Shown here: piece by piece, positions 33,461 through 53,371 of the stretch
How positions within the stretch are numbered: position 1 is the stretch's first letter
Layout: every line of letters begins with the position of its first letter
Virus record (IMG/VR): IMGVR_UViG_3300045988_118731
Coordinates: 1 to 64,000 of that record
Reading direction: 5' to 3' (one strand)
DNA from: a virus
DNA: 64,000 nt
Program-made: the position numbers and the translations under genes
The notes under the pieces: model-generated
Told to the model about the DNA's origin: nothing
Databases searched by the model: none
The model's input: only the letters and a program-made list of their open reading frames with translations

Positions 33461-34650
33461 ATGAGATTAGTTGAAAGGCATATAGTTAAAGACAACCGGT
33501 TTGAGGATATTTGCTTCAAATCCGGCTTGTTATATAATTATGTTCTTTACAACATTCGTCAAGGAATCTTTTCAGGTAACTATTTAAAGGAATTTGATTT
33601 ATCAGACAAACTTTGCAAAGAAAACCAATTCGATTTCAGGAATTTACCTAATCATGTATCCCAACAGGTGATTAAACAGGTATTTAAAAACATAAAATCC
33701 TGGATAAAACTCAAGAAGGATTTTGAAAAGAATCCTTCTAAATACGGAAATCATAGACCTCACCTTCCATCATACAAACAAGGTAAGAAACAAAACATGG
33801 TTGTTTTCACCAACTGCAATTGTAGGGTAAAGGGTGATAATTGTATTTATTTTGTTAAAGATATAATCAAACCTATCAAAACAAATGTAAAGAAAGACGA
33901 ACTAAAACAAGTTAGAATAATCCCTCTACTACATGTTATGTAGTAGAGGTAGTTTATGAAAGAAAGGAAACTGATCTTGGTTTAAACAAAGACAATTTTC
34001 TTTCGATTGATTTAGGATTGAATAATTTATGTTCATGTATTAGTAATGTAGAAACTAATTCTTTCATTATAAACGGACGGGTTATGAAATCAGTAAATCA
34101 GTGGTACAATAAGAAGAAAGCTAAGTTGATGTCTTTTGTTGGTAATAAGGGAACTTCAAATAGAATAAGAAAAATTACTTTGTTTAGAAATTGTTGGATA
34201 GAAGACAAATTGCATAAAATCAGTAGATACATTGTAGACTTTTGTAAATCTAACAATATAGGAACAATCATCATTGGATTAAACAAAGAATGGAAAAACG
34301 AGATAAATATCGGTAAAAGGAATAACCAACATTTTGTTTCTATTCCTCATTCTAAATTGATTGATAAGATTGTTTACAAAGCAAATCTTTTAGGGATAGA
34401 GGTAATTACTCATGAGGAATCTTACACATCAAAGATTGACCATCTTGCTTTTGAACCTCTAAAGAAACAAGAATCCTATTTAGGGAAAAGAAAGAAACGT
34501 GGATTATTCCAAAGTTCCGTTGGAAAGCTAATTAATGCTGATATTAATGGAGCTATAGGAATAGCAAGAAAAGTAGTCGGTGATTCTTTCATTGGAAAGA
34601 TAATCGATAGTGGATTTGTGTTTAATCCGGTTAGAATAAATATTTTGTGA
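33461..34650 (+). pseudogene. second TnpB-like gene, interrupted by 1-nt frameshift near 33920 (ORFs 33461..33943 + 34018..34650); zinc finger likewise lost
   Basis: N-half and C-half are about 75-80% identical to ORF 21438..22631; alternative frame reads PSTTCYVVEVVYERKETDLGLNKDNFLSIDLG, bridging the two ORFs. Confidence 0.6.
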
Positions 34651-36369: not shown

Positions 36370-36416
36370 ACAACAATCCCCAACCATACAATAGGCGTAC
36401 GGTTGGGGATTGTTGT
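36370..36416. terminator. bidirectional terminator at convergence point (16-bp perfect stem acaacaatccccaacc / ggttggggattgttgt, 15-nt loop)
   Basis: seen directly; lies between the last plus gene (ends 36326) and the last minus gene (ends 36416). Confidence 0.7.
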
Positions 36417-37153
36417 CATATCGTAAAATTAAGTGTTTTTTTTAATACCAGATATTCAGTATGAACTTTACTTCCGCCATCATTTATCAAGTCCAAATGA
36501 ATATAAGCTGTATATGATACATGATGATCACCAGGAGCAAGACGTTCCACATCTGATAAGAACATAGAATTTAAACCTTGGCCAAGCCATGATTCTGGAT
36601 ATGGCAAAGGTTTAAAGTCGGCGTCTGTACATGTTACACTCCAAGTAAGATTAGGATCTGCCCTAACTATTCTATCATGAGGTCCATCAATTACAGGATC
36701 TGGCGTCTTATATTGGTAACTATCATAATTAAGGACAATAGGATCACCAAAGTTTACACCGTATATAGCAGCAGGTGGAGTAAAGCTTGTTATTAAAAGG
36801 GTTCTATTAATCCTATTGGTTGTTCTTAGCGTAAACTCATCAGGTGCTATCACACTTACTCTAAATCCATAATGAGGAGAGGTTGTTAAAGCAATAGCAA
36901 GAACCACCGAATCCTGTTCAAGCAATTTCTCTGTCGTATCAACCTGACTATCGATCTCTTGCCTATCTTCCATTGGAACACCGCCTTGGACTCTTATGGA
37001 ATCCAGCCGTTCTTTTTTAGACAGAAAGATAAATTGCCCGCCCTGTGGAATGGTGCCTACTTTCTTTCCTTCTACGATTACCCCCCCCCCTATACAATTG
37101 CTAACTATCTTATACTCATATAGTTTAGCATTATTTTCAAATCTTCTTCTCAT
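36416..37153 (-). CDS. putative tail fibre / receptor-binding-like protein with N-terminal MRRRF motif and G10 tract at codons about 21-25
   Basis: ORF; CIGGGVIV encoded by ataGGGGGGGGGGta (C10 at 37081-37090 on plus strand). Confidence 0.6.
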   Translation of the reverse strand: MRRRFENNAKLYEYKIVSNCIGGGVIVEGKKVGTIPQGGQFIFLSKKERLDSIRVQGGVPMEDRQEIDSQVDTTEKLLEQDSVVLAIALTTSPHYGFRVSVIAPDEFTLRTTNRINRTLLITSFTPPAAIYGVNFGDPIVLNYDSYQYKTPDPVIDGPHDRIVRADPNLTWSVTCTDADFKPLPYPESWLGQGLNSMFLSDVERLAPGDHHVSYTAYIHLDLINDGGSKVHTEYLVLKKTLNFTI

Positions 37154-37360
37154 AATTTCATAAAATTAATTCGGTAAAGGGGCAGACATAACGTGGATTA
37201 CTCCTTGTACTTGTATCCAAATGATCTCCTTGGATGTTTATATCATAATACCACGAATAGGTAAATTGTGTAGATTGAGTGGATGTCCACATTTTATTAC
37301 TCATTATCGTACCTCCTACCATTAAAAGTCATTCGTTTATTTCATTCGCATACAAAGATA

Positions 37361-37774
37361 TCAAAAAAACTCTCCGGCGCCACCTACATATCCATTTTGA
37401 CCATTTTTAAATAAATAGTTATTAGCTTTATTAAAAGCGTAATTTCCATTACTGGTATCATATTCAAGATACGCATTCTGATTTTCACGCCCCCAATAAT
37501 CCTTTTTAACGGTCTCCATATAAGAACTATTTTGTGCAAATACATTGTCTACTATTCCATTCTTACCCCAACTAAATGTGCCAATATATTCAGTGGCTAT
37601 AACAAAACACACTTTATCTACAAGAGCTATTCCATTGCATAGATCATTGGAATATCCTTTATTAGACCAATTTTCTTTCGTATATAATCCTCCATCTACA
37701 TGTTGGATGTATATGCCTTTATTGATTATAAGCGAGGGATTTACCCCCATCCCTATTTGAAATCTTCGTCTCAT
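37361..37774 (-). CDS. putative fibre-like protein, N/G/Y-rich; likely starts at internal MRRRFQ (ORF track gives 37361..37861)
   Basis: ORF; MRRRF motif shared with 36416..37153 and 52832..53371. Confidence 0.5.
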   Translation of the reverse strand: MRRRFQIGMGVNPSLIINKGIYIQHVDGGLYTKENWSNKGYSNDLCNGIALVDKVCFVIATEYIGTFSWGKNGIVDNVFAQNSSYMETVKKDYWGRENQNAYLEYDTSNGNYAFNKANNYLFKNGQNGYVGGAGEFF

Positions 37775-37987: not shown

Positions 37988-40900
37988 CTACTTGTAGCTA
38001 ACATCATCATCTCCTTCCGAATCAGGAGTAGCGCCGATGAAGAACATCATTGACTTGTTGTTCGTCTGCTGCCACCAATTATAGGCGCGCGCTACGTCTT
38101 CCGGCGTCTTGATGTTATACCATTGTTTGATAAACGTCTGTTTGGCGAGTTGCCTAAATAACTTAGACTCTCCTTTGTATGTGCCGGATGTTACTTTATC
38201 AAGTGAGTAATTCCTAAGATCAGTAAGATCCTTCAACTTCCGCCCCATGACAAACGGGTCGTTAATGATATCTACAACGTTAAGCTCCATAATAAACGGC
38301 ATCTGTGAAGCTATTTCGTTTATGGTTCTGAATCCGACATAGGATCCAAATTGAGTAAGCCAACTTTCTTCGTTTTCATCATCATCACGCCATCCGGCAA
38401 GAAGCATGGATACGGCTTGCATGATAAGGAACGTGCCGGCATAGACACTGAGACGTTTTATATTGGTTTTCTCTACCTCATTCATATTGTCTTTATTTTC
38501 GTTCCAGGCATCTATGATGTTTTTCATACCAGACTCGGAAGCTAAGCTAAATGTTTTGGCTATCATATTCTTTAACGTAATTGACAGTCCTTCCTCTTCT
38601 TGCATTGTCTGGAAATTGAAGCCACGTCTTTTCCACAGACGTTGAGCCGCCAGCACCAACCATCCTCGGTGGGCGGTCATGAACCTGGCTATCCAGTTGC
38701 GCGATGCGGCAGTTCGGTTTTCTTCATTCAAAGATCCGTTACATATCTGCGACAAGCTACGAACTTGATTTCTGGTTATAGCCATCTGGGTTTCAACTTC
38801 CTCAACAGTAACACCCGATCCTGGCTTTACAACCACCTTCCCATCCACGACGTCTACCATACTCCATAAAGTACGATCTTTTAATGCATTCCATTCTCTT
38901 TTTATGGTACTCTGTTCTTTATTACGTTCTTTTTCCATCTTGAAATCTTGGAACGTGTAGAACCGGCCTTTGTAATAACGAACATTGTCCATAGTAGCAA
39001 TCATAACCTGCGGATCAAGAGGGTAGTTCAGGATTTCCATAAAAGCATACATAGGCGAACGCATTAAGGTCCTGGCCGCTCTATTGTATCCGGCACCATA
39101 CATACGATTTCGGATATTGAATATCCCCATTCTCTCACCTATGACATATAATTTGCTTTTCCTATCTATGTCTCCGGTTTCTGCTATACAAGATGGCGCA
39201 AGACGTGAAAACTCAGCCGATGCGTATTTAAGGGAGTCTTTGCTTATATACTGTCCTACGGCAGATTCCATGATGAGGTTGATATGACCTGTCAGGGCGC
39301 CGGTAGCTGCCACAAACGGAGACAGTGCCAAGTTCATGACCGACATAAATCTTTCAACAGCCATCATAATTCTTGTAAGGTCTACCGTATATCCTCCGAT
39401 GTTCACCGTAAGTTTTTTGGTGTTCATCCTAATGCCATAATAATGATCGTTGAAGAAGTCCCTGAACATCTGATACGCTTGGGTTGCTTCAGCCTTCTTA
39501 CCGCCTTCAAATTGTTTATTCAGTAACATCTGCTCCAGTCCTTGGGCAAGCTCTATAGACTTCTGCTTTTCGTTATATAACGATGACTGCATCATAAGCA
39601 TAGAATAAGAGTAGCCAAAATCGTGAGATACATCATCTTGGTTCTCCAATTCATATATGTAGTATTTGGGTATAGACCTAAGTCTGTCTTCCGGATCATA
39701 TACTTCCCCTTGTCTGGTTTTACCGTATAAAGAATCGTCTACTCTGTCCAGGCACAGATCTGATACAAAATTACGAACCGTATTTTTGAAGTTAATACCC
39801 AATCCTTCTATACGTTCTATATCTTGTTTTGATATCTGTGGAATAGCATACAGGTTCGGGCTCTGCTCTTTGTATAGATCAAGTGATTGTCTTTTTATTT
39901 CCTTGAGTTTTTGAATCATATTCCACTGATCTACGTTTTTAGTAGCAACTTCATTACCGTCAGCATCATACTTGATACCAAAGTCATTGAAATACGATTC
40001 ATCACGATACAGGCTTTTCTTAGGCATGCGATGACCATACCCATGATCTTTTACATAATCAGGATTACGGCCGCTATTTTCGGCTTCAGATTCAGCCACC
40101 CATGCCCTTGCAGGATCGAAAGACAGGTACGATATGTCCATGCCATAATCTTGGGTGGATGTACCGTTTTGTACGTCCTTAACCATCTGCGCCACATCTA
40201 TCTCACCTCGACCTATTTTGTCGATCATGGCCGCATATCCGGTAGGCGCCATGCGTTTATAGTACGAAAAGACCTGGCTCCTGGCAAATTCATTAACAAT
40301 AGCATTGGTCTCTTCTATGCCCTCTTCTCTTGTATTATTTAAAAACAAGCTGGCCATCTTAGCATTAACAGCATTCCTGAAATCTCTACCGTCTAATTCT
40401 TTGCTTATACCAAGCTTTTCTGACAGGTAGTTGGTTTCAGATACGGTAAACAGATATCGGTTATCAGCAGCCTTAAACAGCTTATCCCTTAAAGCCTGAA
40501 TCCTTTTTGCTTTCTTCGCCGTAGTATGACGTTGTACGAACTTCCATTCCACTTCCTTGGAGTCAGCAAGAGCATTTAAATAAGACTGATTTACTTCGTT
40601 TTCGGCCTTACTGCTTTTAGTAAGGTACTTATCAATATCTTCAAGACCCACCATCTTAGCATAATCTATTAAGATAGCGTAATCAGCTTCAATAGCTTCA
40701 GATGCGGCCCTAAAAGCATCTCTTTCGGATGAGGTAAATGTCGCTTCGTTAATTTCTCCGATATCAGCCACATCGCGGTTGTTTCCGATTATTTCCTTGA
40801 TAATGGCCTTATTTTTTTCTATATCTTTCACAATAGAATCCACGTCAGTCGCATCTCTATCACTTGTCGTAGAACTAATGATATCATGCGCCATTTTGAG

Positions 40901-44500: not shown

Positions 44501-44552
44501 AAAAATGATATGAAAAAAAATTATAATCTGACGAAAAATCGTCAAGTTCGGC

Positions 44553-44912
44553 TTATATGTAATGCATATACCCATCTCGGTGTATAAACCTTCCCGATTC
44601 AAAGCGCTCAATATCTTCAGGGCAAATAGGGCCCGAATCCTCTCTCCTGGCTTCAAACCAAAGCCCCGGCTTACGAAGTCGGCAAGTTATGATATAGTTG
44701 AAGCAATTGTGCGTAAAATGGAAAACAGATCCTACAGGGAAATACCTATCAGCTTGAAATACGATTCTTTTTCGTTTAGTATCAAACGTGATATCTCCTA
44801 CTATCTTAGCCACGTAATAGCTTCTGCCATTTAACGTTTCATCTGTTTGTGGTATCCAATAATAACCTCTTGCCATGCCACAAATATATAAAAAAAAAGT
44901 CGGACAAGACAC
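44553..44912 (-). CDS. hypothetical protein
   Basis: ORF. Confidence 0.5.
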   Translation of the reverse strand: MSCPTFFLYICGMARGYYWIPQTDETLNGRSYYVAKIVGDITFDTKRKRIVFQADRYFPVGSVFHFTHNCFNYIITCRLRKPGLWFEARREDSGPICPEDIERFESGRFIHRDGYMHYI

Positions 44913-52831: not shown

Positions 52832-53371
52832 TTATAAAACTGATTTATACAATGACGGATCCCAAACTCCCTCTATATAAATCTCCGGAAAACTCAAACT
52901 GCCATCACGAAGAGTGGTGACTTCCAAGCTGGGAATGTTGAAAACAGTACTGGCACTACCAAACTCACCATTCAACTTGATAGCATTTCCGCTGTTATTA
53001 GCCTCATAATAAAAATAACAATAATTTTCATTAAGACTCGGATCATATTCGTACCAATATGTTAGATCTTGTATATGGTCTTCTATATTACCAATTTTGT
53101 TTTCACCTAATATAAAAATACCATTATTGCTATGATGATAAACCATAGATTCATAACCACCATAATTCCAATTACTATTAAACATTATGTAACTAACATC
53201 GGAATCATGATCTTTTAATACAGGTCCTATATGTATATGAATTTTATTAAACTGACATACATAAGGTCTTTTTCCTCCAAGCCTTTTTATATCTTCATTA
53301 GATAACTTATTATAACATCCTCCCACAAAATTATCCGCAGCATTAAAAAATCTCCTTCTCATACTCAACAC
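52832..53371 (-). CDS. putative fibre-like protein with MRRRF N-terminal motif
   Basis: MLSMRRRFFNAADNFVGG; immediately downstream of the 2213-aa gene, with overlap. Confidence 0.55.
   Translation of the reverse strand: MLSMRRRFFNAADNFVGGCYNKLSNEDIKRLGGKRPYVCQFNKIHIHIGPVLKDHDSDVSYIMFNSNWNYGGYESMVYHHSNNGIFILGENKIGNIEDHIQDLTYWYEYDPSLNENYCYFYYEANNSGNAIKLNGEFGSASTVFNIPSLEVTTLRDGSLSFPEIYIEGVWDPSLYKSVL

Follow-up and report, generated by a model that had tools for sequence, protein, structure and literature searches.

We examined a 64,000-nucleotide stretch of viral DNA (IMG/VR record IMGVR_UViG_3300045988_118731, positions 1 to 64,000), here called the window, and in it gene B, the last gene of a virion-protein operon, which carries a run of ten G near its 5′ end. 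An earlier note, made from the letters alone, had proposed this run as a candidate phase-variation switch in a putative tail-fibre gene. An allele of gene B is called ON where the length of the run keeps the gene in frame and OFF where it does not. The analysis turns on these features.

36416..37153, minus strand: gene B, 245 amino acids (aa), all-beta, last gene of a minus-strand virion-protein operon; ON in the window
37081..37090, minus strand: G10 homopolymer (C10 on the plus strand) in codons 22-25 of gene B; proposed slipped-strand mispairing site
36974..37153, minus strand: N-terminal module of about 60 aa (MRRR..Y.Y.I.SNC.GG.V...G.I..G.F....I.I.GGVP), which holds the tract

A G10 homopolymer close to the start of gene B

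Around the tract, the plus-strand sequence is ...acgattaCCCCCCCCCCtatacaa..., in which an A and a T flank the C run at 37081-37090. On the minus strand, the open reading frame (ORF) 36416..37153 passes through it as ATA GGG GGG GGG GTA (codons 21-25), and the encoded protein starts MRRRFENNAKLYEYKIVSNCIGGGVIVEGKK. The run thus lies where the earlier note had placed it, about 20 codons from the start of the ORF (codons 22-25 of 245). Its uniqueness was also confirmed: no other run of G or C in the window is longer than six, and the runner-up is a single C6. The GC content of the window is 37.7%, and base composition predicts about 0.007 runs of ten or more over the 64 kb. Two overlapping G9 matches were observed, compared with a mean of 0.06 in dinucleotide-preserving shuffles. 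Inside coding sequence, mononucleotide repeats of about 7-8 bases or more are long enough for slippage, and the G10 run exceeds this length.

G10 is in frame for gene B, so the gene is ON in the window. Loss of one G (G9) places a TAA directly after the run and leaves a product of 24 aa, and a G8 or G11 allele yields one of about 44-45 aa. A change of a single base in either direction truncates the protein, as had been expected.

Tract length and reading frame vary among related genomes

We collected related loci from 79 IMG/VR and 36 ENA gut-metagenome contigs, 111 of which contain the tract site. All tract lengths reported here are those of consensus sequences from short-read assemblies. Across the 111 loci the tract ranges from G8 to G12. 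It is in frame in 39 loci and out of frame in 68 (about 60%); in the remaining 4 it is in frame and the end of the locus cuts the gene. The same length can be ON in one lineage and OFF in another:

Main lineage (TAATCG after the tract): G10, ON (24); G9, OFF (30); G8, OFF (12); G12, OFF (1)
TGTTAT lineage: G9, ON (4); G8, OFF (4)
TAATCA lineage: G10, ON (1); G9, OFF (5); G11, OFF (1)

Interruption of the run is associated with the ON state. Interrupted tracts (G5TG4, G5AG4, G6AG3, G7AGG) were ON at 7 of 8 loci, compared with 32 of 99 for uninterrupted runs of eight or more (Fisher p = 0.003). Most OFF alleles carry no other damage: 60 of the 68 keep the full 220-codon body with the tract frameshift as their sole lesion, and the exceptions are mostly cut by the end of the fetched locus. 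Being otherwise intact, the OFF alleles are reversible in principle.

Tract length differs between close genomes and thereby toggles the frame. Nearest-neighbour genomes that are 0.27-0.4% apart over 3.7 kb often differ in tract length, as in the pairs L005 (G10) and L069 (G9), L004 (G10) and L035 (G9), and L015 (G10) and L057 (G9). On a neighbour-joining tree of the 53 uninterrupted main-lineage alleles, the tract requires at least 21 changes by Fitch parsimony, compared with a mean of 22.8 when lengths are shuffled, and the maximum for any nucleotide site is 20. Tract length is without phylogenetic signal.

Length variation also affects how the gene is called. The N-termini of homologues include the variants IGGGV, IGGEV, IGGRV, IGGDV and IGGGEV, and about 10 of the top 120 homologues were called as proteins of 226 or 227 aa starting MYRGG, which are out-of-frame alleles read from an internal TTG. 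We considered a genuine N-terminally truncated isoform made from this TTG in G9 alleles. Because the AAC TGT lineages do not have the TTG, we rejected the isoform and treated the MYRGG proteins as an annotation artefact.

The tract is kept in divergent homologues

Comparison of orthologous genes, a check that the earlier note had proposed, showed that homologues with as little as about 32% identity still have G9 or G10 at the same codons. Eight divergent homologues illustrate this range:

P0121, 52% identity to gene B: G10, ON
P0122, 41% identity to gene B: G10, ON
P0127, 32% identity to gene B: G9TGG, OFF; gene called from a GTG just past the run
P0166, 33% identity to gene B: G9, OFF; true N-terminus in another frame
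P0156, N-terminal module only: G9, in frame
P0157, N-terminal module only: G10, ON
P0129, chimera, 85% identity over residues 1-73: G10, ON
P0139, 32% identity to gene B: interrupted (GGT GGG GGT), in frame

Since GGG makes up 14.6% of glycine codons, the probability of three consecutive GGG is 0.003. The repeat is maintained against codon bias and drift, with P0139 and many interrupted IGGEV alleles as exceptions, and from the sequences compared we judge that the tract is conserved far beyond codon-usage expectation.

Gene A and apparent recombination at the locus

The gene upstream of gene B looks like a second homopolymer-variable gene, with what would be the second and third variable tracts of the locus:

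37158..37774, minus strand: gene A, the upstream MRRRF gene (MRRRFQIGMGV...), 205 aa when intact; OFF in the window
37363..37369, minus strand: poly-T of gene A (A7 on the plus strand); T7 in the window, out of frame
37744..37748, minus strand: poly-G of gene A, inside the motif ATAGGGatGGGGGTAA; G5 in the window, in frame

The T7 run splits gene A in the window into the ORFs 37361..37774 and 37158..37322, so that here gene A is OFF and gene B is ON. Among relatives the poly-T is mostly T8, the in-frame length (54 of 69), with T7 in 7 and T9 in 8. It is also T8 in phage csAssE-Sib, the closest GenBank record (OR575929.1, 151 kb, human gut; about 95% identity on both flanks). The poly-G of gene A is G4 or G6 (out of frame), G8 (in frame) or G9 (out of frame) in relatives, and the motif ATAGGGatGGGGGTAA in which it lies is the same one that holds G10 in gene B. 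Genes A and B occur in every one of the four ON/OFF combinations (20, 23, 10 and 25 genomes), with no significant association (Fisher p = 0.16).

The tracts of genes A and B have the motif ATAGGGnnGGGGGTAA in common, and hybrid genes in which the N-terminus of gene A is joined to the body of gene B have their junction exactly at ATAGGGnnGGGGGTAA (L121, 10001-10693; L127, 9973 onward). Further A/B deletion chimeras are found in the protein database (P0125, P0126, P0137, P0152). These hybrids and chimeras suggest the tract region as a junction for recombination. At the gene B site of csAssE-Sib, an unrelated 149-aa gene (L001, 4883-5332) replaces the body of gene B (window positions about 36422-37131). 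The replacement gene has the same MRRRFEN start and is without a poly-G tract, and homology ends just past MRRRFEN. Judged by this replacement, the gene B site behaves like a cassette slot.

As a separate observation, the synonymous polymorphism (pS) of genes A and B is 0.03-0.05, whereas that of the adjacent giant ORF (37991-40153) is 0.16 in the same genomes. This difference of 3-5 times suggests that the small genes A and B spread recently by recombination.

Switch, hotspot or artefact

We interpret the G10 run as a contingency locus, that is, a site of phase variation by slipped-strand mispairing, in an uncultured human-gut phage of about 150 kb, and from the comparative evidence we put the probability of this reading at roughly 0.7. 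The frame stays open across divergence and the hypermutable run is retained, a combination that we read as the signature of a contingency locus. Several observations weigh against it. The variants of gene B comprise 208 non-synonymous and 70 synonymous changes, compared with 198 and 76 expected under neutrality, and genes A and B are both OFF in 25 of 78 genomes. Because of these near-neutral counts and joint OFF states, the genes may be just dispensable and the tract a mutational hotspot. The ON fraction, about one third of uninterrupted alleles, resembles that of an unselected random walk over lengths. Many database homologues have an interrupted tract (IGGEV, G7AGG) and manage without a switch. 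No benefit of switching can be named, and gene B is without an assigned function. Finally, G10 is a difficult template in the short-read assemblies from which the consensus lengths come.

The main rival explanation holds that the hotspot is non-adaptive, with genes A and B as accessory cargo under relaxed selection and the OFF alleles as early pseudogenes; homopolymers would simply be the first sites to be hit by loss-of-function mutations. It would account for the ratio of non-synonymous to synonymous polymorphism (pN/pS), for which genes B and A have values of 0.77 and 0.78, compared with 0.03 for the adjacent giant virion ORF. OFF states make up >60% of alleles, with both genes OFF in 32% of genomes, and in gene A even short runs that are not normally called phase-variable cause inactivation (G5 to G6, T8 to T7 or T9). 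In csAssE-Sib, moreover, another gene stands in the place of gene B, and some other genomes have gene B deleted or fused. Under plain decay, however, loss of the tract or breaks of the ORF elsewhere would be expected, and a second lesion is almost never found in OFF alleles. Nonsense variants in gene B are depleted, with about 1-2 real ones compared with about 9 expected (Poisson P = 0.006), and the indels of the gene B body in a 3-kb alignment measure 3, 3 and 9 nucleotides, plus one 17-nucleotide insertion in L065. The frame of the family also stays open down to 32% identity, and G9 or G10 recurs at unchanged codon positions even though most glycine codons are not GGG. On balance we consider a purely non-adaptive hotspot unlikely.

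The DNA-level length polymorphism is directly observed and explains the pattern on its own, which makes it quite improbable that the tract is a dimmer rather than a heritable switch. In such a scheme RNA polymerase or the ribosome would slip on the G run, so that some full-length protein would come from out-of-frame alleles and a reduced amount from in-frame ones. RNA polymerases in general are known to slip on runs of 9-10 identical bases, and the TAA directly after the run in the G9 allele would permit rescue by a single-base slip. The data do not require this, and the in-frame TTG from which gene callers start G9 alleles is not conserved (the AAC TGT lineages lack it). A stimulatory structure downstream of the run was not seen, although no search aimed at one was made. 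A polymorphism that exists only in the assemblies, with a true tract of G10 everywhere and G8, G9, G11 and G12 as short-read or assembler miscalls, would find its basis in the errors to which Illumina chemistry and library polymerase chain reaction are prone on long runs of G. Random errors would likewise give no phylogenetic signal, and the dominance of shorter lengths would fit a deletion bias. Yet deep SPAdes assemblies have OFF lengths as their consensus (G11 at 323x in ERZ779870 NODE_70, G9 at 154x in ERZ824978 NODE_78, G9AGG at 150x in ERZ826146 NODE_38 and G9 at 39x in ERZ827150 NODE_106). All six nearest-neighbour pairs at ≤0.24% divergence have the same tract length within the pair, which disfavours random assembly error. 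The pattern is the same in IMG/VR, ENA SPAdes and Logan assemblies, the frame-breaking changes of gene A occur at G5/G6 and T7-T9, where short-read calls are reliable, and two control runs do not vary (A8 inside gene B at 19 of 19 loci, T7 in the giant ORF at 76 of 76). Miscalling as the whole explanation is therefore highly improbable.

Under the contingency-locus reading, we infer slippage as the cause, reversibility within the population, a selective benefit and the function of the protein. A polymerase would slip on the homopolymer during replication of the phage genome and give progeny with G8-G12. Only the frame-keeping lengths (G10 here, G9 in a sister lineage) would yield the 245-aa product of gene B, and translation at other lengths would end after 24-45 residues. 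At any time the phage population would contain gene B in both ON and OFF form, as heritable and reversible variants, with gene A varying separately by way of the G and T runs that it carries. Gene B would combine a conserved N-terminal beta-sandwich module of about 60 aa, which contains the tract, with an exchangeable and fast-evolving C-terminal body. It would be dispensable for propagation yet kept intact over time, most likely as a host-interaction or virion-surface accessory protein that helps on some hosts and costs on others.

Is gene B a receptor-binding protein?

The proposal of a phase-variation switch in a tail fibre fared differently in its two parts. The switch is supported, indirectly, by G8-G12 polymorphism, frame toggling, intact bodies and deep conservation, whereas the label of tail fibre or receptor-binding protein (RBP) found no backing in Pfam, PHROG, PDB-sequence or INPHARED searches. 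Pfam and PHROGs gave no match for gene B, for gene A (split or intact) or for the replacement cassette of csAssE-Sib. A PDB profile search with gene B returned nothing below E = 0.8, and tblastn of gene B against 50,697 INPHARED phage records returned no match. Homologues in a metagenome protein collection number 231, all of them unnamed and without a Pfam domain. The AlphaFold2 model of gene B is all beta, with a predicted local distance difference test score of 84, and structure comparison gave generic beta-sandwich matches only. No sequence or fold match of gene B to a characterised fibre, spike, RBP tip or anchor domain was found in these comparisons.

The sole pointer to virion association of gene B is its position as the last gene of an operon of giant 'virion structural protein' genes. 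Modularity, the high pN/pS and the presence of the module in BACON-domain proteins are compatible with a host-interaction protein and do not demonstrate one. Residues 172, 174 and 219 are hypervariable across homologues (about 3 bits of entropy; window positions about 36497-36640) and lie in predicted strands. Because 172 and 174 occupy positions i and i+2 on one predicted strand, these residues may form a variable surface patch.

We also considered gene B as the target of a diversity-generating retroelement and rejected this: blastn of gene B against the window found no second copy or template, and the hypervariable codons are not adenine-only. No template repeat was found in the window, and a reverse transcriptase was not searched for outside it.

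A portable N-terminal module

A profile search of 1.84 billion cluster representatives gave 46 matches and indicated that residues 1 to about 60 are a separable module. The module heads proteins of 190-270 aa whose C-terminal bodies are unrelated. It also occurs, sometimes repeated, inside proteins of 590-1268 aa, most of which have BACON or viral BACON_2 domains; these large BACON-domain relatives had no PHROG matches and lay on contigs that were short or gave no further information. The first 60-73 residues or so are conserved and the C-terminal bodies unrelated in P0129, P0151, P0153, P0156 and P0157, and the chimera P0129 has its 85% identity confined to residues 1-73 and is unrelated beyond. 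The gene B family thus has a conserved N-terminal part and an exchangeable C-terminal domain, as modular phage RBPs do. As to a PEGA or carboxypeptidase-regulatory-like beta-sandwich identity of the module, Pfam gave sub-threshold matches only, namely PEGA (one of 10 members, at E = 0.028), DUF2846 and TcaA_3rd_4th; for P0145 the PEGA match reached E = 7.8e-4, which is below the cut-off.

Tentatively, the MRRR...SNC-x-GGG-V module of about 60 aa might be a portable, self-contained switch cassette of gut phages, a conserved N-terminal adaptor whose poly-G would serve as an on/off switch for any C-terminal host-interaction domain recombined behind it. Because hybrids form exactly at the tract, the module would in addition supply recombination homology. 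We regard this as a possible extension of the contingency-locus reading, and a doubtful one. If true, one phage lineage would both shuffle and stochastically silence its repertoire of accessory surface proteins, and the tract would be part of a family-wide, evolved bet-hedging device in abundant human-gut phages and not an isolated case.

The earlier note had spoken of an MRRRF family, and three minus-strand ORFs (36416..37153, 37361..37774 and 52832..53362) do begin with MRRRF. We considered paralogy of the three proteins and rejected it, as similarity ends at the first 5-6 residues. The third of these ORFs (52832-53362, minus strand) encodes 176 aa, lies between two giant virion-protein genes and had no family match in Pfam or PHROGs.

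Comparison with known systems and significance

Poly-G/C contingency tracts are found in surface-structure genes of Campylobacter, Haemophilus and Neisseria. The locus described here resembles them in having a G/C homopolymer near the 5′ end, an ON/OFF frame, an intact ORF in the OFF state and a tract length that does not follow phylogeny, and in that interruption of the tract locks the gene ON. It differs in being virus-borne and copied by whatever polymerase replicates the phage genome.

Among phages, hypermutable poly-G tracts were reportedly described in Campylobacter phages (Sorensen et al. 2021, Cell Rep 35:109214), a work whose title refers to phenotypic diversity and evasion of bacterial resistance. 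What the two systems reportedly share is a long poly-G within a phage gene, whose length switches the product on or off and makes subpopulations. They differ in phage group and host, ours being a gut-phage lineage, and our target is without an assigned function, with evidence that is comparative and not experimental. We see no sequence relationship to the Campylobacter phage system, because tblastn of gene B was empty in the 50,697 phage records.

In phages T2 and T4, contingency loci at mononucleotide repeats have recently been demonstrated by experiment, and their reversible +/-1 frameshifts have been proposed as bet-hedging; in T2 agt, reversion at a repeat of nine A is about 1000-fold faster than that of a point mutant (Gomez, Barrick and Waters 2025, bioRxiv 10.1101/2025.10.21.683753). 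The likeness lies in reversible +/-1 frameshifts at mononucleotide repeats in phage genes, although in our case the reversibility is a deduction from intact OFF alleles. The T2 and T4 repeats consist of about 6-9 A, and the associated phenotype is known (escape from restriction), whereas here the repeat is G10 in an AT-rich genome. OFF variants occur in T2/T4 at 1e-3 to 1e-4, whereas here OFF alleles dominate as the natural-population consensus. The tract studied here is furthermore conserved across deep divergence inside a shared N-terminal module, unlike the T2/T4 repeats.

Modular phage RBPs and the BACON proteins of Bacteroidota phages share with the gene B family a conserved N-terminus and an exchangeable C-terminus, and the module itself occurs in BACON proteins. 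Gene B differs from modular RBPs in that neither its sequence nor its fold matched a characterised fibre, spike or anchor domain. We found no literature on homopolymer switching in crAss-like or other gut phages. Judging from the assembled genomes, what is unusual here is that OFF is the consensus in most natural samples, that the tract is conserved within a portable module and that it seems to double as a recombination junction.

In the arms race between gut phages and their hosts, phase variation has mostly been described in bacteria, for example as capsule switching in Bacteroides. If the tract is a true switch, a widespread human-gut phage lineage of about 150 kb would own a heritable on/off device of its own, with OFF fixed in more than half of the samples. 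An added twist is that the tract lies within a conserved N-terminal module common to proteins with exchangeable bodies. Metagenomic gene calls and pangenomes would then systematically misreport gene B as truncated, split or absent, and comparison of ON and OFF phages would offer a handle on its function. Phage contingency loci would extend beyond Campylobacter and T-even phages to uncultured gut phages.

Genomic surroundings

The minus-strand block that ends in gene B includes giant ORFs of 2140, 2213 and 1019 aa, whose PHROG matches are annotated solely as 'virion structural protein'. Gene B is followed by a hairpin:

36370..36416, minus strand: 21-bp perfect hairpin between convergent operons, beginning at the last base of the gene B stop codon

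The hairpin has a predicted folding free energy (dG) of -35.1 kcal/mol (z = -7.0) and is terminator-like, without a U tract. A scan for consensus terminators detected none; it missed the hairpin because of the missing U tract.

Virion proteins of the phage have distant similarity to those of the Cellulophaga phages phi17:2 and phi4:1. A scan of eight window proteins turned up no crAss-specific Pfam family, and we therefore did not assign the phage to Crassvirales. One distant homologue of gene B sits in a contig that carries CrAss_Ring domains. Our search for literature on csAssE-Sib found none.

Two further homopolymers of the window, A8 at 44513-44520 and A9 at 44890-44898, lie outside ORFs of 120 aa or more and range from A7 to A11 among relatives. 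On the plus strand, a TnpB-like gene (OrfB_IS605 plus a Cas12f1-like TNB domain) is split into two ORFs at 33461-33943 and 34018-34650. Intact 404-aa copies occur at a similar relative position in the related contigs L201-L203, and in contig L199 an intact copy adjoins a distant gene B homologue. Also on the plus strand, 24963-26663 encodes a 566-aa phage protein with SPFH/Band 7 and flotillin domains, an odd cargo for the replication-side module of a phage.

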